Virus record (IMG/VR): IMGVR_UViG_3300042542_005523
Strand: one strand, 5' to 3'
Length of the DNA stretch: 64,000 bases
Source: a virus
Taxonomy: Duplodnaviria; Caudoviricetes
The notes beneath the pieces are model-generated. The model made no database searches and was not told where the DNA came from. It saw only the letters and a list, made by a program, of their open reading frames with translations. The translations under genes were made by a program, and so were the position numbers. This document shows positions 5,122-62,905 of the stretch, piece after piece. Each line of letters opens with the position of its first letter. Within the stretch, counting starts at the first letter, position 1.

Positions 5122-5130
5122 AAAAATAGC

Positions 5131-5595: not shown

Positions 5596-5604
5596 TCACT
5601 ATAA

Positions 5605-6708: not shown

Positions 6709-8372
6709 AGATAAAGAAAGTAGAGTGGAAAAATTTTGCTTCATATGGCAATAGAAAGCAGATTCTTGAATTTCCCGATGAACCCTCACTTTTTCAGGTT
6801 ATAGGAGAAAATGGATCGGGCAAGTCATCTATATCCCAGGTTATAACATTTGCTTTCTATGGTAAAGTAGAGGGTAAGAAATTAGGTGATATTCCTAATA
6901 GAATAAACGGAAATGCGTGGGTTCGTGTTGAATTTGAATCTGATGGCAGAAATATAGCCGTTGAAAGAGGACTAGAGCCTAGCTTATTTGACCTGTATAT
7001 TGATGGCATGAAGTACGATCAAGCTGGTCAAAGAACTGTACAGGAGTATTTATCAGATGATATTTTGGGAATACCGTATTATGTTTTCAATAATACAATC
7101 TTACTCTCCATTAATGACTTTAAGAGTTTTATTAAAATGAGTGTTCAGGACAAAAGGGCAATCGTTGATAAAATATTCGGATTCCACATATTGAACCAAA
7201 TGAGGGATGCCCTCAAAGAGGAATCTAAGAAAATAAAGGAATCGATGGATAATCTGTCCGGGCAGATGATCTCAATTAAAAACTCAATAGAGAAGTCGCA
7301 TTATGAAATGGAATCTCTTGCTTCTGAAATAGAAGAAAAGTCAAAGGAAAGACTAGGATCTCTTAACGAATCTCTTGAAGCTTTCATCAAGCTGCAGGAA
7401 ATACATTCTCAAAAAATAACAGATTTTAAAAAAATTGAGACTGAGTTTAATTCCAGCAATCTTAGTGCAAACCAATCACTGACTGAAGCAAGAACTAAGA
7501 TGAAGGATATTTTAAGAAGATTGTCCCTGTATGAATCTGATAAATGTCCCACATGCGAGTCACCCCTAGATACTGATTTTCATAGTGATGTCAAAAATGG
7601 TCTAGAGGTTGAATCTAAAAAAATGGAAAGCAATCTTAGTGAAATTGAATCCCTGATTTTAGACCTTAGAAAAAAAGAGGCAGACATAAATTCAACAAAA
7701 TCAGATCTGAGGGACAAAGGAAATAAAATATCTGCTAAGATCATAGAGGTAAATAGGGAAATAGAGTCTCTATCTCATAAGAGCGGCAGGGATGAACAGC
7801 TTGGTGCGTTAAAGAGGATAATAGATAATCTGGAGAGCGACAGCCAATCGATACAATCTGAGTCTTTTAAGGTGGAGGAAAAATCTAACTGGATAAAGAC
7901 TTTGGATGATATATTAGGGGAGAAGGGTGTTAAACAATTGGCTATACGAACCATACTTCCATCACTCAATTCTGAAATATTGGATCTTCTTGGACAAATG
8001 CACCTTGATTATCAAGTAGTGTTTGATGAGGAGTTTAAAGCTACCATATATCACATGGGGATAGAGATACCAGTTCAGACCCTTAGCACCGGTGAAATGA
8101 AGAAGGTCGATTTTGTTGTTCTTGTGGCGATAATGAAGCTAATGAAACTTAAATTTTCATCCATAAATCTACTATTCCTCGACGAGCTTTTTAGTTCCGT
8201 CGACCCGGATGGGATTTACTCTATATTAAAAATATTACAGAAGGTAACTAGAGAACTTGGCCTTAATATATTTGTGATTAATCACGCTCCAATGCCGCAT
8301 GAGATATTCGATTGGAAGCTTGAGGTTAAAAAGATGAACAACTTCTCTACTATAACCATAGACAAGTTCTAA
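6705..8372 (+). CDS. gp46: Rad50/SbcC-like SMC ATPase (gp46-like)
   Basis: Walker A GENGSGKS, coiled coil with zinc hook CPTC, signature LSTGE, Walker B LFLDE, INH. Confidence 0.92.
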   Translation: MKIKKVEWKNFASYGNRKQILEFPDEPSLFQVIGENGSGKSSISQVITFAFYGKVEGKKLGDIPNRINGNAWVRVEFESDGRNIAVERGLEPSLFDLYIDGMKYDQAGQRTVQEYLSDDILGIPYYVFNNTILLSINDFKSFIKMSVQDKRAIVDKIFGFHILNQMRDALKEESKKIKESMDNLSGQMISIKNSIEKSHYEMESLASEIEEKSKERLGSLNESLEAFIKLQEIHSQKITDFKKIETEFNSSNLSANQSLTEARTKMKDILRRLSLYESDKCPTCESPLDTDFHSDVKNGLEVESKKMESNLSEIESLILDLRKKEADINSTKSDLRDKGNKISAKIIEVNREIESLSHKSGRDEQLGALKRIIDNLESDSQSIQSESFKVEEKSNWIKTLDDILGEKGVKQLAIRTILPSLNSEILDLLGQMHLDYQVVFDEEFKATIYHMGIEIPVQTLSTGEMKKVDFVVLVAIMKLMKLKFSSINLLFLDELFSSVDPDGIYSILKILQKVTRELGLNIFVINHAPMPHEIFDWKLEVKKMNNFSTITIDKF

Positions 8373-23500: not shown

Positions 23501-23575
23501 AAAAATCCTAATGTGGGGGGAGGAGCGACTTCCGCACAAATAACTACAGTATCATTTAATTTTACACCTAGCTAA
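11528..23575 (+). CDS. Giant (4015-aa) Ser/Thr-rich Gly-X-Y repeat fibre protein
   Basis: About 230-aa unique N-domain, about 3400 aa of G-(S/T)-(S/T/V/A) triplets, an embedded ~120-aa globular domain (~22375-22740), a further short repeat, and a ~140-aa C-terminal domain. Confidence 0.85.
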   Translation: MLTDNLFSGIVDFTDGSLSSLVGITGSATYGSSVITGVDSTIIPGLTAGLSVRALPEGILNPSTTIVSLGSNTVEFSNPVGYTGSANFYIELSSGNYLLNNALFVDVNNIYNVGDIPDYQIGATGGLVISPFAIYTQGRYNDQKNLKAIYEKYIITKVLSRNTVTNRFSAIVTWGFSGSAPTSVNTGQTVLPITQLSPNNLLPPIIDYRAFSYKNLPEGQPFNQEILKVLDSGGSGGSGGSGTSGTSGSSGSSGTSGTSGSSGTSGTDGSSGTSGTDGSSGTSGTSGTDGSSGTSGTSGSSGSSGESGSSGSSGESGTSGSSGSSGESGSSGSSGESGTSGTSGSSGTSGSSGTSGESGSSGTSGESGTSGTSGSSGTSGSSGTSGESGTSGSSGESGTSGSSGTSGSSGTSGESGTSGSSGESGTSGSSGTSGSSGTSGESGTSGTSGSSGTSGSSGSSGESGTSGSSGTSGSSGSAGSSGSTGTSGSSGTGGSSGSSGSSGSSGSTGSSGSSGSSGTSGSTGTSGTSGSSGSSGSSGSSGTSGSSGSVGTSGTSGSSGSVGTSGTSGTSGTSGSVGTSGTSGSSGSSGSSGNSGSSGTSGTSGTSGSSGSVGTSGTSGSSGSSGTSGSSGSTGTSGTSGSSGSVGTSGSSGSSGSSGSSGISGSSGSSGSAGSSGSTGTSGTSGTSGSSGSVGTSGTSGSSGLSGSSGSSGSTGTSGSTGTSGSSGSVGTSGTSGSSGSSGSVGTSGSSGSAGTSGTSGSSGSSGTSGTSGTGGTSGSSGSVGTSGTSGTSGSSGTSGSSGSSGSSGSSGSSGSSGTSGSTGTSGSSGTSGTSGSSGSAGSSGSSGSVGTSGSSGSSGSYGSSGTSGSSGSSGSTGSSGSSGITGSSGTSGSSGTSGSSGSSGSSGSTGSSGTSGTSGTSGTSGSSGSTGTSGSTGTSGSSGSSGSSGSSGLTGSSGTSGSSGTSGSSGSSGSSGSSGSTGSSGTSGSSGTSGSSGSSGSSGSSGSVGTSGTSGSSGSSGSSGSVGTSGTSGSSGSSGSSGNTGSSGTSGSSGTSGSSGSSGSSGSSGSSGTSGSSGTSGSSGSSGSSGSSGSSGSSGSSGSVGTSGTSGSSGSSGSSGVNGSSGTSGSSGTSGSSGSSGSSGSSGSSGTSGSSGSSGSSGSTGSSGSAGTSGSVGTSGSSGSSGSSGSTGSSGTSGSSGSVGTSGSSGSSGSSGSSGSTGSSGTSGNSGTSGTSGSTGSSGTSGSSGSTGSSGSSGSSGSVGTSGSSGTSGSTGTSGTSGSSGSSGSSGSSGSSGTSGTSGSVGTSGSSGSSGSTGTSGSSGSSGSSGSSGTSGSSGSVGTSGTSGTSGSSGSSGSAGTSGSVGTSGTSGSSGSSGSSGSTGSSGTSGSSGSSGSAGTSGSSGSSGSTGSRGTSGTSGSSGSVGTSGTSGSVGTSGTSGTSGSSGSSGSAGSSGSVGTSGTSGSSGSVGTSGSSGTTGTSGTSGSSGSSGSVGTSGTSGTSGTSGSSGSSGNSGSSGTSGTSGSTGSSGSSGSSGSVGTSGSSGSSGSSGSTGSSGSTGTSGSSGTSGSSGTSGTSGTSGSSGSVGTSGTSGSSGSSGSTGTSGTSGSSGSSGSAGSSGSTGTSGTSGSSGSVGTSGTSGSSGSSGSSGSTGSSGSSGTSGSSGSSGSVGTSGSSGSTGSSGSSGSTGTSGSAGSSGSSGSSGSSGSTGTSGSSGTSGSSGSSGSTGSSGTSGSVGTSGTSGTSGSTGSSGSSGTSGSSGSSGSSGSTGTSGTSGSSGSSGSSGSSGSSGTSGSSGSSGSSGSTGSSGSSGSSGSSGSSGTSGSSGSSGSSGSTGTSGSSGSSGTSGSSGSSGSSGSSGSSGSSGSTGSRGTSGSSGTSGTSGTSGSVGTSGTSGSTGTSGSSGSVGTSGTSGSSGSTGSSGTSGSSGSSGSSGSTGSSGSSGTSGSSGSSGTSGSSGSVGTSGSSGSSGSSGSSGSTGSSGTSGSSGSSGSVGTSGTSGSVGTSGTSGSSGSSGSTGSSGTSGSSGSTGSSGSSGSTGTSGSSGTSGSSGSSGSAGSSGSAGTSGSVGTSGTSGSSGSSGSSGSVGTSGTSGTSGSSGSSGSAGSSGSTGSSGSAGSAGTSGVNGSSGTSGSAGSSGSSGSSGSVGTSGTSGTSGSSGSAGSSGSSGSVGTSGSSGTSGSSGSSGSAGSSGSTGTSGSSGSTGTSGSSGTSGTSGSSGSSGSSGSSGSAGTSGTSGSSGSTGSSGSAGTSGTSGSSGSSGSSGSSGSAGTSGSSGSTGSSGSSGTSGSTGSSGSSGTSGSSGTSGSSGSSGSTGSSGSSGSSGSSGSTGSRGTSGTSGSSGTSGTSGTSGSSGSSGSSGSSGSTGTSGSAGTSGSSGSSGSSGSAGSSGSSGSAGSSGSVGTSGSSGTSGSSGSSGSSGSSGSAGTSGSVGTSGSSGSSGSSGSSGSSGSTGSRGTSGTSGTSGSSGSSGSAGTSGSVGTSGSSGSAGSSGSSGSSGTSGSSGTSGSSGSSGSTGSSGSSGSVGTSGSSGSSGSSGSSGSSGTSGANGSSGTSGSSGSSGSSGSSGSSGSAGTSGANGSSGTSGSSGSSGSAGSSGSSGTSGSSGSSGSSGSTGSRGTSGSSGTSGTSGSAGSSGSSGSSGSVGTSGSSGSAGSSGTSGSTGTSGSSGSSGVTGSSGTSGSSGSSGSSGSSGSVGTSGSSGTSGSSGSSGSSGSSGSSGSSGSTGSRGTSGSTGTSGSAGTSGSSGSSGSSGLSGVDGTNGTSGSSGSSGVNGSSGSSGTSGSSGSSGSAGSSGSAGTSGSVGTSGSSGSSGSSGSSGSSGSTGSRGTSGSSGTSGSSGSSGSSGSSGSSGVSGSSGTSGSSGSSGSSGSSGSSGTSGSTGTSGSSGSSGSTGTSGSSGTSGSSGSSGSSGSSGSSGSSGTSGANGSSGTSGSSGSSGSSGSSGSAGTSGANGSSGTSGSSGSAGSSGSSGSSGSVGTSGSSGSSGSAGTSGSSGSSGSSGSSGSTGSRGTSGTSGTSGTSGANGSSGTSGSSGSSGSAGSSGSSGSTGTSGSSGSSGSSGSSGSTGSSGSSGTSGSSGSSGSSGSSGSAGTSGANGSSGTSGSSGSSGSAGSSGSSGTSGANGSSGTSGSSGSSGSAGSSGSSGSTGTSGSSGSSGSSGSAGSSGSTGSRGTSGTSGTSGSAGSSGSSGSSGTSGANGSSGTSGTSGSSGSSGSSGSSGSAGTSGANGSSGTSGSSGSSGSSGSSGSSGSSGTSGANGSSGTSGSSGTSGSSGSSGSSGSSGSSGINGSSGTSGSSGSTGSSGSSGSSGSSGTSGSSGTSGSSGSSGSSGSSGSTGSRGTSGSSGTSGSAGSSGSSGSTGSSGTSGSSGSSGSSGLTGSSGTSGSSGSSGSTGSSGSAGSSGSSGTSGANGSSGTSGSSGSSGSAGSSGSSGSTGSSGSSGSSGSAGSSGSTGSRGTSGTSGTSGTSGSAGSSGTSGANGSSGTSGSSGSSGSAGSSGSSGSSGTSGSAGSSGSSGSSGTSGTSGSSGSSGSSGITGSSGTSGSSGSAGSSGSGGSSGTSGSSGTSGSAGSSGSSGITGSSGTSGSSGSSGSAGSSGTSGSSGSAGSSGISGNDSSNSGRWGYASGGGVPGSGRFSASSSTLSSVIGFAVNDLDINSTDYDEWWLTAEGLVSGGNGIYLQVTQVGSNNIIGLYSVSAINDNTTYWSITVKFIAGSGSMTNAENYTISWVYNGADGPSGSSGTSGSSGSSGSSGSSGIAGSSGTSGSSGSSGSSGSSGSSGIAGSSGTSGSSGSSGSTGSRGTSGSSGSSGSSGSSGSTGSRGTSGSSGSSGTSGSSGSSGSSGSSGSTGSRGTSGTSGTSGSSGTSSTVYVGNANGAGITNGARGSIYLGGTPVAMVAVTAGDYGGGATDFMPGYPMPAGTASKMRVITRSANPALNSLEVYVANATTSTLGAKVTIAAGSAAGVYTTDDGTTVTYSVGDRLYCIAKNPNVGGGATSAQITTVSFNFTPS
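12221..23140 (+). repeat. Low-complexity 9-nt-period (Gly-X-Y) coding repeat
   Basis: Units such as ggttcaagt, ggaacatca, ggtagttca with shuffled synonymous codons; interrupted only by the unique domain at ~22375-22740. Confidence 0.95.
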
Positions 23576-35748: not shown

Positions 35749-38256
35749 ATGAGTTTCAATCCGGAGGATAGGCTACCCAAGCCAATTAATAAAGTTCTGA
35801 ATACTAACGGTGAGCAATACGATCTCACTAACCCTAGATTCACAACTGCTGATGGGCTGGAGAATACTACGAAAATCCCTTTCTCTTCAACTGATGACTA
35901 TTTTTCAACACAGGAAGCTGCTGAAGCTAGAGCACAGCAGATAGGATGCGGGGGATATCACACTGTCATCGTAGAGGGTAAGCTTTATTATAGACCCTGT
36001 GAAACCGCTAATTACTATTCTATTAGAAAGCAGCAGTTAGATTCTGCTCTTAATTTTCAGTACATTGGTAACTATAGAGTTTTAACGTGGGACACTCCTT
36101 TTTTTGGCGTTAGAAAATACAAGGGGTGGATAATAGATGCTTCGTATAGCAATAATACAGGACCTAGTATAAACCCTAATGACGTTCTTGTTGAGTTTAG
36201 GTATTCCATAGATGGTGAATCTTGGTCTCTTTGGTCAACTGTAGGTACAGCAATGAACAATTTCTCCAATACGGAGGCTGCTATTTTCGAAATAAGCCTG
36301 GATCCTGCAGATAAATTCTATCCGGAGTTTAGGTTTACCTCGGTTCTAATTAATCCCGACGGAACACTGGGGTATGAGTCTAATGAGCCAGTGGATCCTA
36401 ACGTAACCATAGTGGATTTTCAATTGGATATTGAATATGATCTAGACTATTTGTCAAATGCATCATTGGATAATAAAGTTATAGCTCCTGCTCTGAGATG
36501 CTCTAATGAGTATACAAATAGACCAGTAGTATTTGACGATTGCAGATTCACTTTTAATCCTTATGCTGTTAATAGAGCGCTTAACCTTTATCAGGATCTA
36601 AGTAAAATAGTAAATAAGGTATTTGGGCTTGATGTTAACTATTATTCTGTGCAACCTCAGGCTAGGGGTAAGGATGTGATACTAAAGGAATATACGCTGT
36701 TCAACGTTGTCGATGAGAAGTGTATAAAAGTTCTAGTTAACCAGAACCAATTTCCGGACAATAAAATTAACTACGATCCATTTGGTTTACAGTTCGATGA
36801 GCCCTTTGAGATACAGATAGACAGAAGGTATTTCGAGGGAATATTTGGAAATGGATCACAGCCTAGAAAAAGAGATATTATTTATTTCCCAATAACTAAT
36901 AGAATCTATGAGATAAATTCGACATATCTTTTCAGGGATTTCATGAATGCTCCCGTTTATTATAAGATCGAGCTAAAGAAATACCAGCCAAAGAGCAACA
37001 CATATTTCCAAGATCCAGCATACAAAGAGGAATTGGATGGCATTGCACTTACAACCCAGGAATTGTTTGGTGCTGAAGTAACTAGTGAGGAAGAAAAAGT
37101 AACAAAGAGGCAGCAATACAACGAGACAACATATGTTAGATCACAGGATCCCATTAGATCATACATCTATTACAATTTAGCTATCATTGGATATGATCTT
37201 AATAATAACTGGACGATAGTTCTTAATAACTATTATGACCTTGAATCTTCATTCGTTGACAATTCAGAATTTACATCCGATCCATTTAAATACAGGAATG
37301 CCATAAGATATAAGGACCTGCCTAAGCTTGGGCCTAAGGAAGAATTATCCCTAACAGCCTGGTGGAATTTGAGAAATGCTTACGATGATACAAAGCTTAG
37401 AAAGATAGGCTTCCCTGTTATAAATGTGAATGTTTCTTCCTATACTGAATCGTATGTTGTTTATTCTACCTATCCAATAAAGCACAATCTTACGGCATGG
37501 AACAGTTACGCCGATAACCCTAATGGATATGTTGCAATACAGGGTGATTCTGCACACAGTGGGGGATATCTAGTAAGAAGTGTAATAGACGAATACACAT
37601 TCACCACAATAAATCAAAGCGTTGAATTTGACCCTGGAGTTACGGTATGGAAAATGCAAAAGGCTCAATCCCGTAACTTTCTTAGCGGACTTTATATGGA
37701 AGGCTTAGAATACAGGGGATTCAGGTTTGACCTAATCCACTCTGGATCGATTGAGCAAGATGTCACTAACTATATCCAGCAGGGTAGCTTCTATCTTAGA
37801 CTTAATAATGGCATAGAGATAAACTCCCCACTTCAATTCACAGCAAAACATGGTGAATGGTATTCTGTTGTGGTGAACGTTTCTAATAAGTATAAACAGA
37901 TTTCAATAAATGCTTGGCAAATGTCATATGACCCGGTGAACCCTCAATCACAATCCAGTGAATTGATCAAGGTACATGAATACGTGCAAAGTTTGGATGC
38001 ACCCGTTATATTCGATGCGCCTTCTAACATAGTAACAGATGTCAGCAGTCCTTTCTATGGAACAGATCAGAATTCCTATAAGGTGTTTACTTCCCCACTA
38101 TATTTGTCAAATATAAGATTGTTCAAGAATATGATAGATATAGATAATCAATCAACCGTCTTAAATCAGAATATTGTAAGAGACACACAGCTTGCACACA
38201 TTATAGATAACGCTAAACCGCTTCTGAACGTTCCTAGATTTGTTCGTAGCCGTTAA
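35749..38256 (+). CDS. Neck / head-closure protein (gp14-like core) with N- and C-terminal extra domains
   Basis: Central VFGLDVNYY...DVILKEY...FPDN...PFGLQFDEPFEIQIDRRYF...PRKRDIIYFPITNRIYEI...YKIELKKY resembles T4 gp14. Confidence 0.6.
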   Translation: MSFNPEDRLPKPINKVLNTNGEQYDLTNPRFTTADGLENTTKIPFSSTDDYFSTQEAAEARAQQIGCGGYHTVIVEGKLYYRPCETANYYSIRKQQLDSALNFQYIGNYRVLTWDTPFFGVRKYKGWIIDASYSNNTGPSINPNDVLVEFRYSIDGESWSLWSTVGTAMNNFSNTEAAIFEISLDPADKFYPEFRFTSVLINPDGTLGYESNEPVDPNVTIVDFQLDIEYDLDYLSNASLDNKVIAPALRCSNEYTNRPVVFDDCRFTFNPYAVNRALNLYQDLSKIVNKVFGLDVNYYSVQPQARGKDVILKEYTLFNVVDEKCIKVLVNQNQFPDNKINYDPFGLQFDEPFEIQIDRRYFEGIFGNGSQPRKRDIIYFPITNRIYEINSTYLFRDFMNAPVYYKIELKKYQPKSNTYFQDPAYKEELDGIALTTQELFGAEVTSEEEKVTKRQQYNETTYVRSQDPIRSYIYYNLAIIGYDLNNNWTIVLNNYYDLESSFVDNSEFTSDPFKYRNAIRYKDLPKLGPKEELSLTAWWNLRNAYDDTKLRKIGFPVINVNVSSYTESYVVYSTYPIKHNLTAWNSYADNPNGYVAIQGDSAHSGGYLVRSVIDEYTFTTINQSVEFDPGVTVWKMQKAQSRNFLSGLYMEGLEYRGFRFDLIHSGSIEQDVTNYIQQGSFYLRLNNGIEINSPLQFTAKHGEWYSVVVNVSNKYKQISINAWQMSYDPVNPQSQSSELIKVHEYVQSLDAPVIFDAPSNIVTDVSSPFYGTDQNSYKVFTSPLYLSNIRLFKNMIDIDNQSTVLNQNIVRDTQLAHIIDNAKPLLNVPRFVRSR

Positions 38257-39053: not shown

Positions 39054-40898
39054 ATGGCGGAAGAAACAAACAAGAATCAGCCGGAGCTAAATGATGGTAA
39101 TTATTGGAGCACGGCTAAAGTTAACGAGTTACTCAGAAAAGCAGACGAGGAAGGGCTAGATTTCAAGAGTGTAGATAATCCTTTCCATGACAATAATCCT
39201 GAGCTAAGAAGATCTAATGTACTATTCGAGTACACACAGGAGGAGATAATAGAAATTGACAAGTGCGCAAGGGACGTTATCTACTTTTCAAAATATTGTC
39301 AGGTTGTGACCGATACGGGTCTTGCTTATATTACTCTGAGGGAATACCAAGAATCGGTATTAAGAGAATATCAGGCCAATAGATTTAATATATTTCTAGC
39401 ACCCCGGCAGGTTGGTAAATCCATAATGTCCGCTGTTTTTCTGGTGTGGTTTTTACTTTTCAACCACGATAAAAATGCGATGATCCTGGCAAACGTTGGT
39501 GACACAGCAGAGGAATTGATGGATAAGATAAAGGCCATAATAAAAGGATTGCCTTTCTTTCTGAAGCCCGGAATGATGGTCAATAATGTAATGTCTGTGC
39601 GTTTTGATAACGGCTGTAGGGTTATTGCTAAAACGACCACTAAGACATCCGGTATCGGTTTTACTATTCATTTTTTATACATGGACGAGTTTGCTCACAT
39701 TAACTCATCCTTTATGGAAGCTTTCTTCAGGTCTACGTACCCCACGGTATCTTCCTCGAAGGTGTCCCGAATCATTATAACATCTACACCAAATGGAATG
39801 AATAAGTTCTATGAGATGTATATGAGCGCTGTTAAGAAAGAGAACACGTTCAATCCAATTAGGGTTGATTGGTGGCAGGTACCTGGTAGGGACGATGTGT
39901 GGAAACAGAATGAAATATCTAACCTTGGATCCGAGGAGCTATTTAATCAGGAGTACGGTAATCAGTTCTTAAGCTCCTCTACTTTGCTACTTGGATCACA
40001 GGAGTTACAGAAGATAAAAAGAAACGAGGTAGAGTATTTATGGAGGGAGATTGATGAATTTCATTACTCTGACGTAAATTATGAGAATTTTCTATGGCAT
40101 CCTAAATTTGATATAGATAGTGCTGCAGAAGGGAATAAAAAATATGTTGTATCCGTAGATCTCTCAGGTGGAAACAAGGGTGATTTTACAGTCATTAATG
40201 TTTTTAAGGTCTCTCCTCTTCCAAAGAAAGTGATAGAAAGAATAGGAGAATTTGAGGACGAGGGTGATTTCTTTGGCCTTATTCAGGTTGGTATATTAAG
40301 GGACAACGAGATAAAACTGGAGGATGTAGTTAAGATACTTAGAATACTGGTAAAGAATGTACTAGGTGTCGAATCTGTGAAAATAGCTCTTGAGATAAAT
40401 TACAAGGGAGAGCTTCTGGTTGATAAGTTTCTTGCTGACGAGGATCTTTTTGAGGAAATTTTTGTTTACACTAAGCATTCTGAATCTGCTAGATCTTCTA
40501 AAGCTGGTATAAAATACAATGAAAAGAACAAGATGAAAAACTGTGAGCAGCTCAGAACACTTGTTAGAGCAGACAGAATATTGGTGAATGATAAGAAATG
40601 GACAGTACCTGAGCTATTCACATTCGGGCTGAATTCAAGAGGAACATATTCCAGCCAAACAGGTCATGATGACGTTGCTATGTCCCTGGTTAATCTCTCC
40701 TCTGCTTTTGAAAGTGGCGATTTCTACCAACTGGTCGGAGAACTTTTTGATGCGATGGAAACCCCATATAAAGGATTAATATTAAATAAAATGGGGGAAA
40801 CCGGGCAATCCCAATCTTCTGATGAATTTGGATTCGGAAACCAAGGTCCTTCTACCAAGGACGGAAAAAGCTTTAGGGACTTTAGTTCCATGATGTAG
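39054..40898 (+). CDS. gp17: Terminase large subunit
   Basis: APRQVGKS Walker A, LYMDEFAHI Walker B, ITSTPNG, VDWWQVPGRD, VSVDLSGG, GHDDVAMS nuclease motifs. Confidence 0.95.
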   Translation: MAEETNKNQPELNDGNYWSTAKVNELLRKADEEGLDFKSVDNPFHDNNPELRRSNVLFEYTQEEIIEIDKCARDVIYFSKYCQVVTDTGLAYITLREYQESVLREYQANRFNIFLAPRQVGKSIMSAVFLVWFLLFNHDKNAMILANVGDTAEELMDKIKAIIKGLPFFLKPGMMVNNVMSVRFDNGCRVIAKTTTKTSGIGFTIHFLYMDEFAHINSSFMEAFFRSTYPTVSSSKVSRIIITSTPNGMNKFYEMYMSAVKKENTFNPIRVDWWQVPGRDDVWKQNEISNLGSEELFNQEYGNQFLSSSTLLLGSQELQKIKRNEVEYLWREIDEFHYSDVNYENFLWHPKFDIDSAAEGNKKYVVSVDLSGGNKGDFTVINVFKVSPLPKKVIERIGEFEDEGDFFGLIQVGILRDNEIKLEDVVKILRILVKNVLGVESVKIALEINYKGELLVDKFLADEDLFEEIFVYTKHSESARSSKAGIKYNEKNKMKNCEQLRTLVRADRILVNDKKWTVPELFTFGLNSRGTYSSQTGHDDVAMSLVNLSSAFESGDFYQLVGELFDAMETPYKGLILNKMGETGQSQSSDEFGFGNQGPSTKDGKSFRDFSSMM

Positions 40899-48997: not shown

Positions 48998-49612
48998 ATG
49001 ATAGAACAGAAAGAGAAGGTTGAGAAAAACATCCAAAAACTTGCAGGGAATTTCCTATTCGAGAAGAACGAGAAATCATTCAAAGAACTTTTTGAGAGAT
49101 TGAGACCCGGTGTATTGAATCACTGCTACGTTATTCTAAAAGACAGGGAATTAGCGGAGGATGCTTTCATTAACACAATGACCAAGATCTGGACTAAAAT
49201 AGATCAATATGACGATGAGAGAGGTAATTTCTCTACGTGGTGTTATAATATTGCACGTAATGAGAGCTTATTGCTAATTAAATCTAGGAACAAATACGTT
49301 TCACAGAATGAAAAGGAATTGGATTTTCATTCAATTAAGCATGATTCAATCATGGGCGAGCATTATGTTCTAGAAAATTCAATTGATTATGCTTTTTTCA
49401 ATGAAGAGAACACTGTTGATGCCGTATATGAGGCGGTCATAGACGAAATAAGAACATTACCTGAACTCTACCGAGACATTATGGTAGACCGAGAGATAAA
49501 TGGTATGAAATACAAGGACATAGCGATCAAATATGGTATCAAGAAAAGATCCATAGCTACGAGAATAAGAAGAGCAAGAGCTAAGATCAAGAAAAAAATG
49601 GGGAAACCTTAA
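48998..49612 (+). CDS. ECF-type sigma-70 factor
   Basis: Region 2 AEDAFINTMTKIWTKIDQYD..RGNFSTWCYNIARN; region 4 LPELYRDIM...GMKYKDIA...IATRIRRAR. Confidence 0.9.
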   Translation: MIEQKEKVEKNIQKLAGNFLFEKNEKSFKELFERLRPGVLNHCYVILKDRELAEDAFINTMTKIWTKIDQYDDERGNFSTWCYNIARNESLLLIKSRNKYVSQNEKELDFHSIKHDSIMGEHYVLENSIDYAFFNEENTVDAVYEAVIDEIRTLPELYRDIMVDREINGMKYKDIAIKYGIKKRSIATRIRRARAKIKKKMGKP

Positions 49613-52648: not shown

Positions 52649-53338
52649 ATGGCAGATTACCCACAGATCCAACAGGAGTCAAATAACTTAAATTACGACG
52701 GAGGAGGTAGTACAGGCGGTACATATACCCAAACTGTACAGGGTGGATCTACTAGTGCGCCAGTTTTCACACCTGGTGCTTGTACTTTTACTGCTAGATA
52801 CACTAACGTTGCTCGAACAAGGGAAGCATTACCGCTGATAGATTGGACGTTTAAGTATAAGAACCAACCTGCTTTTTTTAAATACTTCAAGTCCTCTTTT
52901 AATGTGTGCCTGCAGTCAAATGTGATGGATACTCTGAGCTTAGCTTCTTTTTTTCATCCTTTTCTTTCTTTCTCTAGTTACCAAAAGCAAACATTTGTAA
53001 TAGCTCCGGATACTTCAATCGATGTAGATACTGGTAATTTTGCCAACACATTAAACGAGGTTAGCTTTATATTGGCAAGAGCTTATTATCTACCGACACA
53101 AAAGGGAGCTGCTAGAGTATTATTTTGGGACTACGACGGAAACACTAGATACCCGATGGGTGAAATAATGGTTTTAACCGGCGCTGTAAAAGAGGATCAG
53201 AATTGGAAGGGGTGGAATATAAGTTCTTTCTCTAATATAGGTCACACAGGTCCTGTATCCAATCCTAGTTTGGGTGGCATCACCTTTACAAACCCAACCG
53301 AATCGCCAGTTAAACTGGTAGTAATAACAGCAAACTAA
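52649..53338 (+). CDS. Hypothetical late protein, paralog of the next gene
   Basis: VSFILARAYY...FWDYDG...PMGEIMVLTG...GWN...GGITFTNP; GATAAATA at 52629. Confidence 0.7.
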   Translation: MADYPQIQQESNNLNYDGGGSTGGTYTQTVQGGSTSAPVFTPGACTFTARYTNVARTREALPLIDWTFKYKNQPAFFKYFKSSFNVCLQSNVMDTLSLASFFHPFLSFSSYQKQTFVIAPDTSIDVDTGNFANTLNEVSFILARAYYLPTQKGAARVLFWDYDGNTRYPMGEIMVLTGAVKEDQNWKGWNISSFSNIGHTGPVSNPSLGGITFTNPTESPVKLVVITAN

Positions 53339-53339
53339 T

Positions 53340-53825
53340 ATGGCAACAAGACCCGTTATATGTCCCTATATAGAACCAGAGGGATTGAAATTCGAAAGAA
53401 CTAACCTGGTTATAGATTCAAACAGCATGATGAATCCTCAAATAGTGCTTATGTTAGAGGATTTGTTATTTGATGTTCCTGCATATTCAAAATCCACAAT
53501 AAATCTTAGAGCTGAATCCTGCGCACTGATAAGCCAGTCGGACATAGCGGATCCTGGAGGGTACGTTAGCTTTATAGCTATTAAAGCAGTATACCCAGCT
53601 GGGACTTTAGAAAAAGACAAGTTCATTACATGGGAGTACAGGGGCAATGAATATTTTATGGGCGAACTTACTGTATTGAGCGGTGTTAATATCACAACTT
53701 TTGATTCTGAGCAATATGGATGGAATCTGGCTAAACCTGGACCAGTATACCAGGACGGAGGCATAACGGTGTGTAATCCCCACTTAGATAAAAGGGTAAT
53801 TTTAGAGATATTGGTTTGCAGATAA
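53340..53825 (+). CDS. Hypothetical late protein, paralog of the previous gene
   Basis: VSFIAIKAVY...TWEYRG...FMGELTVLSG...GWN...GGITVCNP. Confidence 0.7.
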   Translation: MATRPVICPYIEPEGLKFERTNLVIDSNSMMNPQIVLMLEDLLFDVPAYSKSTINLRAESCALISQSDIADPGGYVSFIAIKAVYPAGTLEKDKFITWEYRGNEYFMGELTVLSGVNITTFDSEQYGWNLAKPGPVYQDGGITVCNPHLDKRVILEILVCR

Positions 53826-56745: not shown

Positions 56746-57105
56746 ATGGCAAAAGTTTATGTTAAAAACAGTGAGCTCCTTAGAGCCGTATCCGAATCTA
56801 AAGAGAAGGGTCAGCTAACAAGAGAGACAATCGATATGTTTACCCTCATGATAGAAGGTATTTCTAAGAAGATGGCTTACAAGGATCCTGACGATAAGGA
56901 CGATTGTATGGCTTTTGCCATGGAGGATCTTTGCAAATATTGGAATAGATTTGACCCTGCTAAATCTAACAATCCATTTGCCTACTTCACTCAGGTTGCA
57001 AAGAATGGATTTGCTAAGGGATGGAAGAAATTACACCCGCCAAAGAATCCTAAAACTATACCCTTCAGTTATATAACAGGGGAGGATAATAGTTACAACG
57101 TTTAA
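56746..57105 (+). CDS. gp55: Late-transcription sigma factor (gp55-like, compact)
   Basis: YVKNSELL, DDCMAFAMEDLCKYWNRFDPAKSNNPFAYFTQVAKNGF matches the gp55 FDP.KS.NPFAYFTQ signature. Confidence 0.85.
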   Translation: MAKVYVKNSELLRAVSESKEKGQLTRETIDMFTLMIEGISKKMAYKDPDDKDDCMAFAMEDLCKYWNRFDPAKSNNPFAYFTQVAKNGFAKGWKKLHPPKNPKTIPFSYITGEDNSYNV

Positions 57106-57106
57106 T

Positions 57107-57592
57107 ATGTCCATAAAAAAGGTTAAACCTAACGGAAAACACAAACATGGGCTTTATAGTCCACAGAATCCCGATAAGTACATAGGTGATATACATAATA
57201 TCATTTATAGATCTTCGTGGGAGCAGAGATTCTGTGCATATTGCGATAGAAACGAAAGGATAGTTAAATGGAGCTCTGAACCTCTTTTTATAGATTACTG
57301 GAATCCATTAGATAAGAAAATGCACAAATACTATGTGGATTTTTACATAAAGACTCTAAAAGAAGACGACACCTATCAGGAGTGGATAATAGAGGTTAAG
57401 CCAGAGTCACAAACTCAAAAGCCGATATACGAGGGTAAAAATATGACTCTTAAAAAACTAGAGAGCTATAACTATAATATGAAAATATGGATAACAAATC
57501 AGGCAAAATTTAAAGCTGCTAAAGAATGGGCTATCCAAAGAGGTTTTAGATTTGGCGTAGTTGACGAGAAATTTCTTTTTAATAGTAAATGA
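57107..57592 (+). CDS. gp4: Head completion nuclease (gp4-like, TnsA-type)
   Basis: KYIGD...IIYRSSWE...KWSSEP...YYVDF...EVKP...NQAKFKAA. Confidence 0.85.
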   Translation: MSIKKVKPNGKHKHGLYSPQNPDKYIGDIHNIIYRSSWEQRFCAYCDRNERIVKWSSEPLFIDYWNPLDKKMHKYYVDFYIKTLKEDDTYQEWIIEVKPESQTQKPIYEGKNMTLKKLESYNYNMKIWITNQAKFKAAKEWAIQRGFRFGVVDEKFLFNSK

Positions 57593-58233
57593 GCTTTTCT
57601 GAAAAAATAAAATCATACAAGGACGGATTCATATCCCAATCTGAGACTGTTTCTAAAACTGACGAGTATTTTATAAGCTCCTATATAAAGTTATCGAACA
57701 GGGATTTTCGACCTGAAAAGTTCGACGGCCAATTTCTTCCCGGTAAGATCTATATTTTTAGATATAATCCTAAGCAGAAACCCGATGACGGTAAAAAAAA
57801 GGAGAAGGAGTTCATAAACAGACTACCGATAGTTTTAGCTTTTGATGTTAAGAAATCAAAAGATCTAAACAACATCCTATATGGATCGGATTTAATAGCT
57901 ACCCCACCTGATGAAAGAGTTAAGATATTGGAGAGGGTCTATGATTTTTCAGAGAGCATAATAGATTCTAATAAAAAATCGGGAAGCCAATCTCCCGTGA
58001 ACCTAAGTGGTGATAATGTAAAGTCTTTATTGAAAGGTACTGGGTATATTGGAAGCACTAAAGGATTCGATATTTCATCAATGTCTGAAGTCTATGTTAT
58101 AGGCTATGATGATTGGAAAAAAATACCATATCTTAGTGTAGCCCTTCTTCAAGGGTCTTCTCCGATTGAGATATATAATTCCTATAGATCGAAATTAAAA
58201 GATAATTCTGGTCTAGAAAATAAAAATAAGTAG
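57589..58233 (+). CDS. DNA end-protector protein (gp2-like)
   Basis: PGKIYIFRYNPK...LPIV...PPDERVKIL resembles gp2; adjacent to gp4. Confidence 0.55.
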   Translation: MSFSEKIKSYKDGFISQSETVSKTDEYFISSYIKLSNRDFRPEKFDGQFLPGKIYIFRYNPKQKPDDGKKKEKEFINRLPIVLAFDVKKSKDLNNILYGSDLIATPPDERVKILERVYDFSESIIDSNKKSGSQSPVNLSGDNVKSLLKGTGYIGSTKGFDISSMSEVYVIGYDDWKKIPYLSVALLQGSSPIEIYNSYRSKLKDNSGLENKNK

Positions 58234-58236
58234 TGA

Positions 58237-59811
58237 ATGGCTGGTTTTATAGATAACGAAAATGGTAATCCGGTATTTCAGAGGATTAGGGAATCTGTTA
58301 AGTCGATCTCTAAGTTCGGTATGAAATACGAGGACATGGTGATTAAGAACTCCATGGCTGTTGGCGCTACTGAAGCTGCTTTCATTAATCAGAACAAAAC
58401 AAACGTTCCTGATGAGAATATGATGTATAGTCTTGCGAAGCAAGATACTATGGTCAAACAGTATATCTCTTATTTCGACAAGGATTATAAGGGAAAGAGG
58501 GATTATCTTAGGAAATTCTCTCTTAACCCAGAGATAGAAGGAGTTCTTGATATTGTTTGTGACGAATCCATAAACTACGACCCTTCTAATTATTACGCAT
58601 ATCCCGATTTTCTAGATATAACTACTCTAAAAGAAAAAACAAGAGAAAAGGTTTATGACGTTTTTAGAAAAATATATGACATCTGGGGATTTAGCGATGA
58701 TATAACAGCATGGCAATTCTTTAGACAATTCATGGTGGACGGATTCCTTGCATTTGAAATAATCTGGGACAATAGGGGGAAAGAGATAATTGGATTTAAA
58801 GAATTGGACGCTACTTCTTTAATACCTAGCGTAGAAAAACAACCAGACGGAAGACATGTCAACGTTTGGATACAATTTCCGAATGACCCTAAAAAGACAA
58901 GAATGCTATATGACTCCCAGATCATATACATGTCTTATGCTAAGGGAAATTCAGTTTCCAGATTAAGTTATGTTGAGAGATTAATTAGACCTTATAATAC
59001 CCTAAGAATTATAGAATACACTAGGGTAATTTGGTCAGTGATGAATGCTTCATTCAAGCTTAAAATGACCGTTCCTGTTGGATCAAGATCACCTCAGAAA
59101 GCTATGCAGACCTTGGGTGAACTTATGAGTATCTATAAGGAGGATATTAGCTTGAGCGATGATACTGGTGAATTGCTAGTTGACGGAGCACCTAAGATAC
59201 AATTCTATAAGAATTATCTGATACCACAGGGCCAAAACGGTCAACCTACAATTGAGCCCTTGACAATGGAGGGACCGAACTTAAATGATCCTGCCCCTCT
59301 TGCATATTTCTACGATAGATTCATAGAGGAATCTAAAATACCTGCTACAAGATTTAAGGGGTTAGATGGATCTTCTAGTGCAACATATTCCAACACTGCG
59401 GATGGCCTGGACAAGGAAGAGGTAAGATTTAGTAAGTTCATAAGTAGATTGAGAACCAATTTTCAGGATATCATTATAAAGCCACTTTGGTTACAAATAT
59501 GTAAAGACAATCCGGAATTAGAAAAAGATCTAGTTTTTAAGAGCCAGCTTGGACTTAAGTACATCAGTGAGAACCCTTTTAGGGTAAACCAGGAGATGGA
59601 ATTGATCACCAAGAGAAAAGAAAGCGTAGATTCGCTAGCTCTTATAATGGAAGACGACGATAAACCTTATTTTTCGCAGACTTACTTAATTGAGAATTTT
59701 CTCGGACTTACACCTGCAGACATTAAAGCTAACAAGATAGCAAAAGAAAAGAATGCCAAGAAGAAAGAGAAGGAAGGCGGGGAGGAAGAAGCACCAGAAG
59801 TTACTTTATAA
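58237..59811 (+). CDS. gp20: Portal protein, paralog 1
   Basis: LRKFSLNPEIEGVLDIVCDE, FRQFMVDG, SYVERLIRPYNTLRIIE, IQFYKNYLIP, ESKIPATRF, EEVRFSKFISRLR (gp20 pattern); 524 aa. Confidence 0.88.
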   Translation: MAGFIDNENGNPVFQRIRESVKSISKFGMKYEDMVIKNSMAVGATEAAFINQNKTNVPDENMMYSLAKQDTMVKQYISYFDKDYKGKRDYLRKFSLNPEIEGVLDIVCDESINYDPSNYYAYPDFLDITTLKEKTREKVYDVFRKIYDIWGFSDDITAWQFFRQFMVDGFLAFEIIWDNRGKEIIGFKELDATSLIPSVEKQPDGRHVNVWIQFPNDPKKTRMLYDSQIIYMSYAKGNSVSRLSYVERLIRPYNTLRIIEYTRVIWSVMNASFKLKMTVPVGSRSPQKAMQTLGELMSIYKEDISLSDDTGELLVDGAPKIQFYKNYLIPQGQNGQPTIEPLTMEGPNLNDPAPLAYFYDRFIEESKIPATRFKGLDGSSSATYSNTADGLDKEEVRFSKFISRLRTNFQDIIIKPLWLQICKDNPELEKDLVFKSQLGLKYISENPFRVNQEMELITKRKESVDSLALIMEDDDKPYFSQTYLIENFLGLTPADIKANKIAKEKNAKKKEKEGGEEEAPEVTL

Positions 59812-59825
59812 ATAAAAAAATAGAA

Positions 59826-61475
59826 ATGGCAGGATTTATAGATCCCATACAACCAAATAGTGCATTCGGAACGATACTGAGAAGTCTTTCTCAGATATCT
59901 AGGTTTGGTATGAAGTACGAGGATATGGTTGTTAGGAATTCACAGGCCATAGGTAAAACCGAATCTGAATTCTTCAATGAGCAGGGAACAGGATTTACAG
60001 AAAGTGATGCTTTTTATTGGACGGTTTCTCATTCTGATACGAAGGTAAGAAAGTACATAGCTTATTTTGATAAGGATTACATAGACAAAAGAAACTTTCT
60101 TAGGAAGTTTTCGCTAAACGGTGAGATTGAGTTTATACTCGATACGGTAACTGATGAAGCTGTGGTTTACGACGAGAAGAATTATTTTGCATATCCTGAG
60201 ATCAAGAATTTGGACGTAAGCGATAAGGTAAAAGATAAACTGATGGAGAATTTTTACCGGATCTATCATCTTTTCAATTTTCAGGAAAGTATATTAGCTT
60301 GGCAGGTATTTAGGCAGCTCCTAATTGATGGGTTTCTAGCTTATGAGATAATCTACGATAGCAGAGGCAAGCAAGTCATTGGATTTAAAGAACTCGATGC
60401 AACATCACTTCAGCCTATGGTTGAAAAAGTTGGCGAAAATGATTTTCAGCAGGTTTGGGTTCAGTATCCAAAGAATCCCCAGATGACAAGAAAGCTTAAG
60501 AATGAGCAGGTTATCTACATATCATATGCTAAAGGTAATTCAATTTCCAGGGTAAGTTATGTTGAGAGATTAGTTAGATCCTATAACATCCTGAAAATAA
60601 TGGAGAACAGTAGGATTATATGGAATGTCATGAACGCTTCATATAGATTGAAGTTTGTTATACCTATAGGTACACAGTCACCACAAAAGGCCATGCAAAC
60701 GCTAGGACAAATAATGTCTTATCATAAAGAGGAGATATCTATAAACGACAATTCAGGGGAATTGACTGTTAACGGAAGACCAAAAATTCAGTTCTATAAA
60801 AACTATCTTTTCCCTGAGAAGGATGGTGTTTCCCCTACCATAGAAACACTAAATGCAGCTGGACCTGATTTTAATATCATGGACAACGTGCTTTACTTCT
60901 TCAATAAACTAAAGCAAGATTCTAAAATACCGTATGCGAGATTTGCTTATAGAGGTGGAACACCTGCAAACAACCAAATTAGCATTGATTCTTTAGAAAG
61001 AGATGAGATAAGGTTCGAGAAGTTTCTTTCCAGATTGAGATCGATTTATCAGGAAATCATAGTTAAGCCTCTTTATATACAAATGTGTCTTGATTATCCT
61101 GAGCTTGTAAAAGATAGAAGCTTTAAAACTAATCTTGGAATTAATTTCGTAAGGGAAAGCGAATTCAACGATCTGGTTGAACTTGCTAATCTAGTTAAAA
61201 GAGGGGATTTTATAAAATCTCTTGCTGACATGAAAGTTAAAGTTGGTGAAGAAGAGCAGCCTTATTTTGATAAAGATTTCCTTGTTCAGAGATTTTTAGG
61301 TCTAACACCGGAGCAGATAGAGGGCAATGCTTCATACAAAGAGCTCGAAGCTAAATCTGCTAAAAAGGAAAGCTCTACTAGCGGAGCTGAGGGCGAGGCA
61401 GCTCCAGCGGAAGAAGAAGCGGCAGCTCCAGCGGAAGAAGAAGCGGCAGCACCCGCTGAGGAAAAGACTGCATAG
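59826..61475 (+). CDS. gp20: Portal protein, paralog 2
   Basis: Colinear with paralog 1 (FGMKYEDMV, LRKFSLN, GFKELDATSL, SPQKAMQTLG, IQFYKNY, DEIRFEKFLSRLR); 549 aa; TATAAATA at 59807. Confidence 0.88.
   Translation: MAGFIDPIQPNSAFGTILRSLSQISRFGMKYEDMVVRNSQAIGKTESEFFNEQGTGFTESDAFYWTVSHSDTKVRKYIAYFDKDYIDKRNFLRKFSLNGEIEFILDTVTDEAVVYDEKNYFAYPEIKNLDVSDKVKDKLMENFYRIYHLFNFQESILAWQVFRQLLIDGFLAYEIIYDSRGKQVIGFKELDATSLQPMVEKVGENDFQQVWVQYPKNPQMTRKLKNEQVIYISYAKGNSISRVSYVERLVRSYNILKIMENSRIIWNVMNASYRLKFVIPIGTQSPQKAMQTLGQIMSYHKEEISINDNSGELTVNGRPKIQFYKNYLFPEKDGVSPTIETLNAAGPDFNIMDNVLYFFNKLKQDSKIPYARFAYRGGTPANNQISIDSLERDEIRFEKFLSRLRSIYQEIIVKPLYIQMCLDYPELVKDRSFKTNLGINFVRESEFNDLVELANLVKRGDFIKSLADMKVKVGEEEQPYFDKDFLVQRFLGLTPEQIEGNASYKELEAKSAKKESSTSGAEGEAAPAEEEAAAPAEEEAAAPAEEKTA
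61398..61445 (+). repeat. 24-bp tandem repeat x2 (AAPAEEEA) in the portal-2 tail
   Basis: gcagctccagcggaagaagaagcg at 61398 and 61422. Confidence 0.85.
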
Positions 61476-61520
61476 TCCAGCCTAACACTCTAATACGTAA
61501 TTACATTTATCATTCTCCAT

Positions 61521-61548
61521 AAACCGTCGGAATACCTACGGTTTTTTT
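61521..61548 (+). terminator. Intrinsic terminator after the portal genes
   Basis: aaaccgt...acggttt followed by a T run. Confidence 0.7.
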
Positions 61549-61551
61549 ATT

Positions 61552-61559
61552 TATATTTG
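61552..61559 (+). promoter_or_regulatory. Possible Bacteroidota-type -7 element TAnnTTTG
   Basis: TATATTTG 24 nt before the ligase ATG. Confidence 0.4.
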
Positions 61560-61582
61560 TATTATAACTAAATAGAAGTAAA

Positions 61583-62905
61583 ATGATTAAAGAACTAAGA
61601 ATCTTAAAGGAATTAGAGGAACTTACTGGAGAGGGATCACAGAAGAAAAAGCAGGAGATAATCAAACAAAATTGGACCTCTGAATTAGCTTACGTTTTTG
61701 ACGTGTGCTTCAATCCATTTGTTACTACCAAGCTACATAAGCTTAATTTTTCAGAGGATCCGAGCGATTCTTTTGGACTGGATAACTTCAAAGAGCTCGT
61801 TGAAAAATTAAAATCAGCTCCTGCAGCTAATAATTCTATAAGGTTAGAAGCTAATCAGATGGTAAACACCAGAATTACCGATGATAGTGACGACGCTGAC
61901 CTTAGAAAGATTCTAATGAAGGTGCTAACCAAGAGAATGAACGTTGGCGTTGGTGCGAAGCTGATCAACAAGGCTATTGGTAGAGAGGTGATACCTGATC
62001 CATCCGTTATGTTAGCAACCGACGACCAAGATTCGCTTCTAAGCTGGGATAAGATCTATTGTGAGGAAAAGTATGATGGCGTAAGAGTAATAGCTATTTA
62101 TAAGGAAGGTGGATTTAGTTACTTTACCAGAGCTTTTAATGAACTTGATGCAGATAAGCTGCACAAGATTACATTTTCTCTTAAACAGATAATGAACTTT
62201 TCAGGATTGAAAGGCTCTTGGTTCTTTGATGGTGAATTAACAGATCACAATAGGAAATCAGTAAGTGGTAAGGTTACGCAGATACTAAAGGGGACTGCCC
62301 CTGACAATATTGGGGACAGTATTATATTTAATGTATTTGATCTTGAAGAATATGATACGCTAAGAGCCGGTGTAGGTATCATACCTTACTCAGTAAGAAG
62401 ACAGACGCTAGAATCTGTTATGAAAAACGTCGAAGAGAGTGAGCCAGTGAAATTAGCTACAATGCGGGAACTTGAAGATCCCTCTCAGATTGCTTCGGTA
62501 TACCAAAAAATAGTGGATGCAGGGGGAGAGGGAGTTATATGCAAGAATGATCATCTGTACGAATGTAAAAGATCAAAAAGCTGGGTGAAATTCAAGGAGG
62601 TTAACGAATGTGATCTTGTCATCCGTGGATGGTACGCAGGAGAGGGTAAAAGGGAGGGCTTCATAGGTGGACTTGTATGCACGGACCTATCTGAAACCTT
62701 GCATGTTAAAATAGGATCAGGTTTTACCGACGAGGACCTTAAATCATTGAGTGCTAACCCAGATGCCCTTCGAGGGAAGATATGTGCTGTGCAATACAAC
62801 GTTACAATTACTGACAAGTTTGATAATAGATCACTATTTTTGCCTAGATTCGTAGAGATAAGAAACGATAAGTCAGAGGCTGATGATTTATCATCCAAAT
62901 TTTGA
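61583..62905 (+). CDS. lig: ATP-dependent DNA ligase
   Basis: EEKYDGVR (KxDG), FDGEL, FDL, EGVICK, WVKFK, GSGFTD, FLPRF..IRNDK. Confidence 0.95.
   Translation: MIKELRILKELEELTGEGSQKKKQEIIKQNWTSELAYVFDVCFNPFVTTKLHKLNFSEDPSDSFGLDNFKELVEKLKSAPAANNSIRLEANQMVNTRITDDSDDADLRKILMKVLTKRMNVGVGAKLINKAIGREVIPDPSVMLATDDQDSLLSWDKIYCEEKYDGVRVIAIYKEGGFSYFTRAFNELDADKLHKITFSLKQIMNFSGLKGSWFFDGELTDHNRKSVSGKVTQILKGTAPDNIGDSIIFNVFDLEEYDTLRAGVGIIPYSVRRQTLESVMKNVEESEPVKLATMRELEDPSQIASVYQKIVDAGGEGVICKNDHLYECKRSKSWVKFKEVNECDLVIRGWYAGEGKREGFIGGLVCTDLSETLHVKIGSGFTDEDLKSLSANPDALRGKICAVQYNVTITDKFDNRSLFLPRFVEIRNDKSEADDLSSKF

Follow-up and report, generated by a model that had tools for sequence, protein, structure and literature searches.

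The window analyzed here is the 64,000-nucleotide (nt) stretch of DNA from the IMG/VR virus record IMGVR_UViG_3300042542_005523 (Duplodnaviria; Caudoviricetes). The source is an uncultured huge phage of lake water that has head and tail genes of the T4 type and belongs to a clade with complete genomes of 270 to 430 kilobases (kb). The host, judged from relatives, is probably a member of the Bacteroidota. Near the 3' end of the window lie two adjoining genes, here called A and B, whose products both resemble gp20, the portal protein of phage T4 (Table 1). The initial annotation of this DNA had described two portal open reading frames (ORFs) of 524 and 549 amino acids (aa) at this place, colinear and roughly half identical, and had read them as an old, selected duplication. 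The coordinates it gave for both ORFs are exact, and its estimate by eye agrees with the alignment described below.

In BLASTP, the two proteins align colinearly with 258 of 521 positions identical (50%) and 10 gap positions, and neither this alignment nor the predicted secondary structure reveals an insertion, a new domain, or a domain loss in A or B. The Portal_T4 family (Pfam ID PF07230), which has a curated cut-off of 22.9 bits, matches A with 192 bits (E = 2e-56, profile positions 7 to 427 of 433) and B with 217 bits (E = 4e-64, profile positions 6 to 427 of 433), and both proteins match the portal family PHROG 213. The family alignment profile also finds T4 gp20 in the PDB (E ~1e-22). 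The top Foldseek matches of both structure models are T4 gp20 chains, with E values of about 1e-13 for A (PDB IDs 9MKB, 6UZC, and 3JA7) and about 1e-20 (3e-20) for B. The AlphaFold2 monomer models are weak, with predicted local distance difference test (pLDDT) values of 60 and 62, values below 50 in the clip, and template modeling (TM) scores of about 0.4 to 0.5. The predicted helices and strands of A and B match almost one for one, and the profile alignment, together with the secondary structure of these weak models, places the wing, stem, clip, tunnel loop, and crown in the gp20 order. The initial annotation had named a copy without clip or tunnel elements as a finding that would speak against two complete portals; by these predictions, clip, stem, tunnel-loop, and crown elements are present in both. 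By these matches, both A and B are identified as full-length gp20-type portal proteins, which public sources label “hypothetical protein.”

The IMG/VR scan yielded 209 contigs encoding a relative. Among the best 80 of the 209, which were examined, an intact A gene is located directly 5' of an intact B gene in 79, and the 80th locus begins inside B, where it is cut by the contig end. In this best-80 set, the A-type proteins are 61 to 97% identical to the window A and only 47 to 52% identical to the window B, and the converse applies to the B-type proteins. Two further scans, seeded with the most divergent member and with the portal of the sequenced huge phage LR756500, added ten more pair-bearing loci and showed relatives of LR756500 to have one portal. 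The added loci include a deep lineage (L107/L108), whose pair at positions 3989 to 7556 is composed of longer ORFs of 591 and 596 aa that are 53 to 54% identical to A and B; this lineage could serve as an outgroup when the pair is dated or its ancestral states are compared. Both rounds together give about 90 independently assembled contigs with the tandem pair, and in these loci the A orthologs (54 to 97% identical to the window A) are always found 5' of B, and the B orthologs (53 to 97% identical to the window B) always 3' of A. Exactly two portal genes, adjoining each other, are present in all five relatives rated 99 to 100% complete (270 to 430 kb, two of them with terminal repeats). Loss of one copy among relatives, which the initial annotation had likewise named as a sign against its reading, is not seen, and all informative relatives retain the pair. 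Hundreds of contigs represent the clade, and at least 15 studies of lake water have metagenomes that contain DNA of the window. A single 14-kb contig, assembled from an unrelated lake-water run, covers positions 57000 to 62000 unbroken. A megablast search of the 5-kb stretch against deposited phages gave zero matches.

In a tree with 118 rows, the A proteins and the B proteins each form a clade with 100% support, and A and B together are separated from the single-copy outgroups with 99% support. The two stem branches are nearly equal (0.44 and 0.41), and the A and B subtrees mirror each other. The nearest huge phages with a single portal (LR756500, three others, Lak, and PTm1) fall outside the A+B clade. 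A second tree (LG+C20, 42 rows, eight single-copy outgroup sequences) again recovers the A clade (100/99) and the B clade (100/100), supports A+B+L107 with 90/94, and leaves all eight single-copy sequences outside. Of the L107 pair, the first member groups here as sister to the A clade (100/98) and the second as sister to the B clade (84/82). The trees and the placement of L107 indicate one duplication event that predates all sampled members of the clade and shows no reversal among them; the pair is the product of a single ancient tandem portal duplication at the base of the clade, kept since. Concerted evolution or gene conversion was also considered and was ruled out, because the A-to-B identity is 45 to 53% both within and between genomes.

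The pairwise ratios of nonsynonymous to synonymous substitution rates (dN/dS), taken from genome pairs with unsaturated synonymous sites, are 0.011 to 0.044 for A and 0.008 to 0.040 for B, and dN is near-identical for A and B within each genome pair. Both copies are under equal, strong purifying selection, and neither is decaying or lacks a portal element. The old, selected duplication proposed in the initial annotation is thereby borne out by the two checks it had suggested, the phylogeny giving reciprocal A and B clades (100% support) with mirrored subtrees and the single-copy phages outside, and dN/dS being 0.01 to 0.04 in both copies.

Across 82 sequences of both types, 100 alignment columns are invariant in both copies. 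These include the N-terminal motifs MAGF and FGMKY.DMV, KIQFYKNY in the clip, and SKIP..RF at the entry of the tunnel loop, and the channel-lining and clip motifs are unchanged in both copies. To locate the differences, we set domain boundaries by combining the domains published for gp20 (PMC4493910) with the predicted secondary structure and a profile alignment to T4 gp20; a domain map obtained by adding T4 gp20 with MAFFT was about 40 residues off compared to the profile alignment and the predicted helices and was replaced. A fixed A/B difference was defined as a column at least 90% conserved within A and within B, with differing residues. There are 27 such differences, 16 of which are located in the stem-clip-stem-tunnel core, a region of 139 of the 557 columns (odds ratio 4.8, Fisher p = 1e-4). 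Residues 252 to 394 hold 20 of the 27, and the large first wing segment and the N-terminal region hold one each. The outgroup state at the fixed sites is kept by B at about nine and by A at about five (hand count), the columns conserved in one copy on its own number 36 in B and 22 in A, and B is slightly nearer to the LR756500 portal than A (45% versus 43% identity). The sole main-chain contacts between subunits of the T4 portal are made by the clip (PMC4493910). Its stem-clip-stem core is where the subunits contact each other most tightly, and the gp13 arm inserts into the groove between adjacent clips (PMC12929587). Terminase binding in T4 is also located at the clip.

Among 55 distinct relatives, the A-B spacer ranges from 1 to 23 nt, with modes at 9 and 4 nt, and in one case the genes overlap. 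The initial annotation had assigned a late-promoter-like motif to the upstream region of each gene. The motifs are found at the positions given, GATATATA at 58170 to 58177 and TATAAATA at 59807 to 59814, and the conserved GATATATA is a candidate late promoter of A, whereas the claim fails for B, where TATAAATA is unconserved and occurs at chance frequency. The arrangement of GATATATA followed by ATCGAAATTAA is found 28 to 73 nt (mostly 55 to 73) 5' of A in 53 of 55 loci, and 5' of A only, and all six exact copies of GATATATA in the window are on the plus (coding) strand. This block overlaps the last codons of the gp2-like gene, in which rare third positions (ATA, TCG) are kept despite otherwise saturated synonymous sites, suggesting a constraint at the DNA level, and the block looks like a regulatory element that lies within the gp2-like gene. 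The TATAAATA motif is found seven times in the window, compared to 7.4 times expected from shuffles, with five of the seven copies on the minus strand; the copy at 59807 consists of the last codons of A and the stop codon and is present only in the window and in its two closest relatives (L003 and L004). Its chance frequency, mostly wrong strand, and lack of conservation rule it out as a late promoter of B. Because the spacer is short, TATAAATA is unconserved, and the conserved GATATATA block is found 5' of A only, the genome arrangement of A and B is read as a single late operon. Short contigs from two RNA libraries touch A and B; such contigs cannot show transcription, strand, or level. Elsewhere in the window, a (G)ATATATAGA motif is located 29 to 38 nt 5' of the gene starts at 8419, 35749 (neck), 40961 (sheath), 46911, and 53888 (twice), making it a candidate for the late-promoter consensus of this phage, distinct from the T4 motif TATAAATA.

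The gp55-, gp4-, and gp2-like genes are located directly 5' of A, and a DNA ligase and a clamp loader are encoded 3' of the pair. The order of gp2 followed by the portal gene is also found in PTm1. Upstream in the window are the 835-aa neck protein, the large terminase, a 1113-aa sheath protein, and two tail tube genes. The large terminase is present as one full-length copy in each of the five complete relatives, one of which (G002) has an additional partial terminase match of 263 aa with 28% identity. The Terminase_6C domain (Pfam ID PF17289) gave zero matches in the relatives, and the terminase was located by PHROGs and protein search instead. The neck protein is likewise found as one full-length copy in each of the five complete genomes, and neither the prohead protease nor the full-length major capsid protein has a second full-length copy in the complete genomes of the clade. 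The terminase, neck protein, prohead protease, and full-length capsid protein all staying single suggests one vertex machine rather than two. A fused or longer neck adaptor was considered as a correlate of the two-portal state and ruled out, as the neck proteins of the single-portal outgroups are similarly long (650 to 887 aa, comparable to 835 aa here). As a separate observation, four of the five complete relatives (G002, G003, G004, and G006) encode a short gp23-like ORF (about 305 to 313 aa; e.g., G003:C1:242467-242988) distant from the full-length capsid gene; this ORF is possibly a vertex or decoration paralog, comparable to T4 gp24.

The tail tube gene is duplicated in the same clade as the portal gene. 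The two tail tube paralogs of the window are 57% identical and arranged in tandem, and a tandem tail tube pair is found in all five complete clade genomes, whereas the gene is single in LR756500, LR756501, LR756502, and LR756504. Since the single-portal huge phages branch outside the A+B clade, both the portal and the tail tube duplications postdate the split from them.

Table 1. Positions in the window of the portal pair, its candidate signals, and the genes discussed with it.
Feature	Position	Strand	Basis or remark
Neck protein, gp13/gp14-type, 835 aa (portal clip partner), single copy	35749..38256	+	PF11649, PHROG 679
Large terminase (portal clip partner)	39054..40898	+	PHROG 5989/2
Tail tube paralog 1, 184 aa	44343..44897	+	PHROG 32623/45
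Tail tube paralog 2, 191 aa	44913..45488	+	PHROG tail tube
gp55-like late sigma factor	56746..57105	+	PHROG 234, E 3e-15
gp4-like head closure protein	57107..57592	+	PHROG 218, E 2e-45; PF08722
gp2-like DNA end protector, single copy in window	57589..58233	+	PHROG 429, E 9e-8
GATATATA (~10 nt) ATCGAAATTAA block, candidate late promoter	58168..58200	+	67 nt 5' of A, within 3' end of gp2-like gene
Portal paralog A, T4 gp20-type, 524 aa	58237..59811	+	ORF, PF07230, PHROG 213, Foldseek
A-B spacer, 14 nt, A-rich, without conserved promoter	59812..59825	+	Sequence and 55 distinct relatives
Portal paralog B, T4 gp20-type, 549 aa, C-terminal tail acidic and Ala/Pro-rich	59826..61475	+	ORF, PF07230, PHROG 213, Foldseek
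(G)ATATATAGA motif	8388, 35711, 40924, 46882, 53828, 53858	+	Recurs 5' of five gene starts

Some further features of the window were observed apart from the portal pair. Two sigma-type factors are encoded, a PHROG 1740 sigma factor-like protein (48998 to 49612, plus strand) and the gp55-like protein (56746 to 57105, plus strand). A 4015-aa ORF spans positions 11528 to 23575 (plus strand), and its central 10 kb has a G+C content of 0.47 to 0.49, compared to about 0.36 elsewhere, with a strong GC skew of about 0.3. It is accompanied by a long shadow ORF on the opposite strand, typical of repetitive sequence, and is followed by a block of low G+C content (0.28 to 0.32) at 24 to 34 kb. Two adjoining ORFs at 52649 to 53338 and 53340 to 53825 (plus strand) are weak paralogs (28% identity over 147 aa, E = 2e-9), neither of which matches a PHROG or Pfam family.

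We put the possibility that A and B are subunits of one hetero-dodecameric portal a little short of an even chance. A and B would be produced together in similar amounts and would co-assemble in one mixed dodecameric ring at the sole portal vertex, the simplest arrangement being an alternating A6B6 ring. Such a ring would have a built-in six-fold instead of twelve-fold symmetry at the stem-clip core, which would be the site of subunit locking, of terminase docking, and later of neck docking. Each copy would have lost the ability to close a ring alone, leaving neither dispensable, and the perfect retention of both copies would be explained by this loss. The same route may have been taken by the tail tube gene, which is also duplicated in this clade. 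When homomeric ring proteins give rise to paralogs, it is common for these to remain together in heteromers, thermosome/CCT and RuvBL1/2 being examples. What favors a mixed dodecamer is the symmetric divergence of the copies, the absence of any loss, the matched expression suggested by the operon, the single set of partners, and the conservation of the N-terminal and wing regions in both copies. The T4 counterparts of these regions function in head initiation and in contact with the capsid (PMC4493910). In a stronger form, the portal would be an obligate alternating A6B6 ring, the first heteromeric portal of any tailed virus, offering two kinds of clip groove to the terminase and the neck; the tail tube would likewise be a mixed ring, and the symmetry of the whole DNA channel would have been lowered in one evolutionary step. 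This combination we regard as doubtful.

Several points weigh against a mixed ring. Most of the fixed differences are conservative (I/M, V/I, D/E, K/R, F/Y), so that a loss of self-assembly is not evident from them. The clip of the monomer models is of low confidence (pLDDT 60 to 62 overall), and the fixed differences are therefore unmapped onto three-dimensional interfaces. Contact between A and B is something that we infer; a complex prediction for A residues 85 to 515 with B residues 86 to 517 gave, in a run without controls, an ipSAE of 0.01 against a mark of 0.34, for which the verdict of the tool is no answer, and the prediction is counted neither way. The members of the clade are uncultured and known from sequence alone. 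Furthermore, a virion with two separate homomeric rings would also be compatible with the equal constraint, the co-expression, and the retention of the copies. On balance, the evidence leans, without proof, to a heteromeric ring over two vertices or stacked rings.

A virion in which A and B form separate homo-dodecameric rings, stacked along the channel or used at different places or times (packaging versus ejection, or a second special vertex), is a serious rival, though in our view an unlikely one. It would account equally well for the perfect retention, the equal purifying selection, and the operon, and the clip-centered fixed differences could reflect different docking partners. The doubling of the tail tube in the same clade additionally means that more than one channel component is duplicated, and mimivirus has separate entry and exit portals (PMC2430901). 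However, a second full-length terminase, neck protein, protease, or capsid protein is not found in the complete genomes, leaving no second set of partners, and the same invariant N-terminal and wing residues in both copies suggest the same location, based on the role of these regions in T4 (PMC4493910). Stacked rings would moreover need a new crown-to-clip interface, and neither copy shows an insertion or a new domain. Two nucleators give aberrant heads, which also counts against two rings. In tailed phages, it is the portal that nucleates head assembly (PMC4493910), and this is counted on the same side.

Alternative portals are improbable; here each virion would carry either A12 or B12, so that particles of two types would exist or one portal would back up the other under host interference. 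Both copies look fully portal-competent, and with portal-sensing bacterial defense proteins (Avs4-type) being known, a second portal could be an escape route. Redundancy, however, predicts some losses or unequal rates, and neither is seen: both copies are present in all informative loci and evolve at equal rates. The tiny spacer suggests co-transcription with no sign of separate regulation, and A and B differ by fixed conserved states, not by fast diversification, unlike an arms-race gene. A virion portal in one copy and a non-portal role in the other (assembly factor, internal capsid ring, or decoy) has, we think, even less going for it. A is slightly more derived than B, with fewer outgroup states kept (about 5 versus about 9), a lower Pfam score, and fewer own-conserved columns (22 versus 36), but this asymmetry is small, the stem branches and dN are near-equal, the channel-lining and clip motifs are invariant in both copies, and neither has lost or gained a domain. 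Both of these explanations fit the perfect retention and equal rates less well. Neither an artefact of assembly or annotation nor a recent, strain-specific duplication lacking function need be considered further, because the pair recurs in about 90 independent contigs from many samples, one contig from an unrelated run spans the whole stretch, and the copies are 50% divergent with saturated synonymous sites.

A detectable homologue was found in 2111 deposited phage genomes, each of which has one full-length portal. The matching places number 2113, the two extra ones being a 101-aa fragment in one 735-kb genome that is filed twice. The full-text literature, with subscription journals outside its coverage, yielded no report of duplicated or paralogous portal genes in tailed phages. 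The conserved two-portal state thus appears to be without described precedent in the literature searched or in deposited phage genomes, the proteins themselves being, by their family matches, ordinary members of a known family.

Textbooks present the portal as a homo-dodecamer, and twelve identical subunits are assumed wherever head nucleation, symmetry mismatch, motor docking, or genome gating is modeled. Here, two portal subunits under equal constraint, together with two tail tube subunits, have been kept through long divergence in a large natural clade, which is thereby a natural experiment on the need for twelve-fold identity. The pair may show how viral homomeric rings turn heteromeric, and how the portal is matched to the six-fold parts of the neck and tail.

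Among known systems, T4 gp20 (Pfam ID PF07230; PDB IDs 3JA7, 6UZC, 9MKB, and 9LU7) shares the Pfam family and, by profile alignment and predicted secondary structure, the domain order with A and B and is the top structural match of both, and the window has T4-type neighbors in common with T4, namely, homologues of gp55, gp4, and gp2, the neck protein, terminase, sheath, and tube. T4 has one full-length portal gene and a homo-dodecameric ring, whereas here two side-by-side paralogs are found, which are about 15 to 20% identical to gp20 in structural alignments. The nearest sequenced relative of both copies is LR756500 (462 kb), with 43 to 45% identity, followed by LR756501, LR756502, LR756504, and LR745206 (635 to 735 kb) with 33 to 38% and then by the Prevotella Lak megaphages. 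LR756500, LR756501, LR756502, LR756504, and the Lak phages have the same T4-type portal family and a similarly long neck protein; unlike the clade described here, LR756500, LR756501, LR756502, and LR756504 have one full-length portal and one tail tube gene each.

A duplicated virion protein is known from T4 itself, where gp23 and gp24 are annotated as occupying non-equivalent positions of one shell. These two proteins fill hexamer and pentamer positions, respectively, whereas the twelve positions of a portal ring, for which a comparable case is not known to have been described, are equivalent except for the mismatch to the capsid. Mimivirus, with separate portals for DNA exit and packaging, is a known exception to one portal per capsid (PMC2430901). 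It belongs to another virus realm and has unrelated proteins, and the clade described here shows no evidence of a second vertex. The thermosome/CCT, RuvBL1/2, and the proteasome alpha and beta subunits are heteromeric rings derived from homomeric ancestors and established biochemically. In each of these, a gene for a ring homomer duplicated, and the two copies persisted with joint expression and equal constraint, whereas for A and B the co-assembly is something that we only infer. The retention of A and B, the co-expression suggested by their operon, and their equal constraint are the pattern expected if a portal ring, like these cellular rings, became an obligate heteromer.

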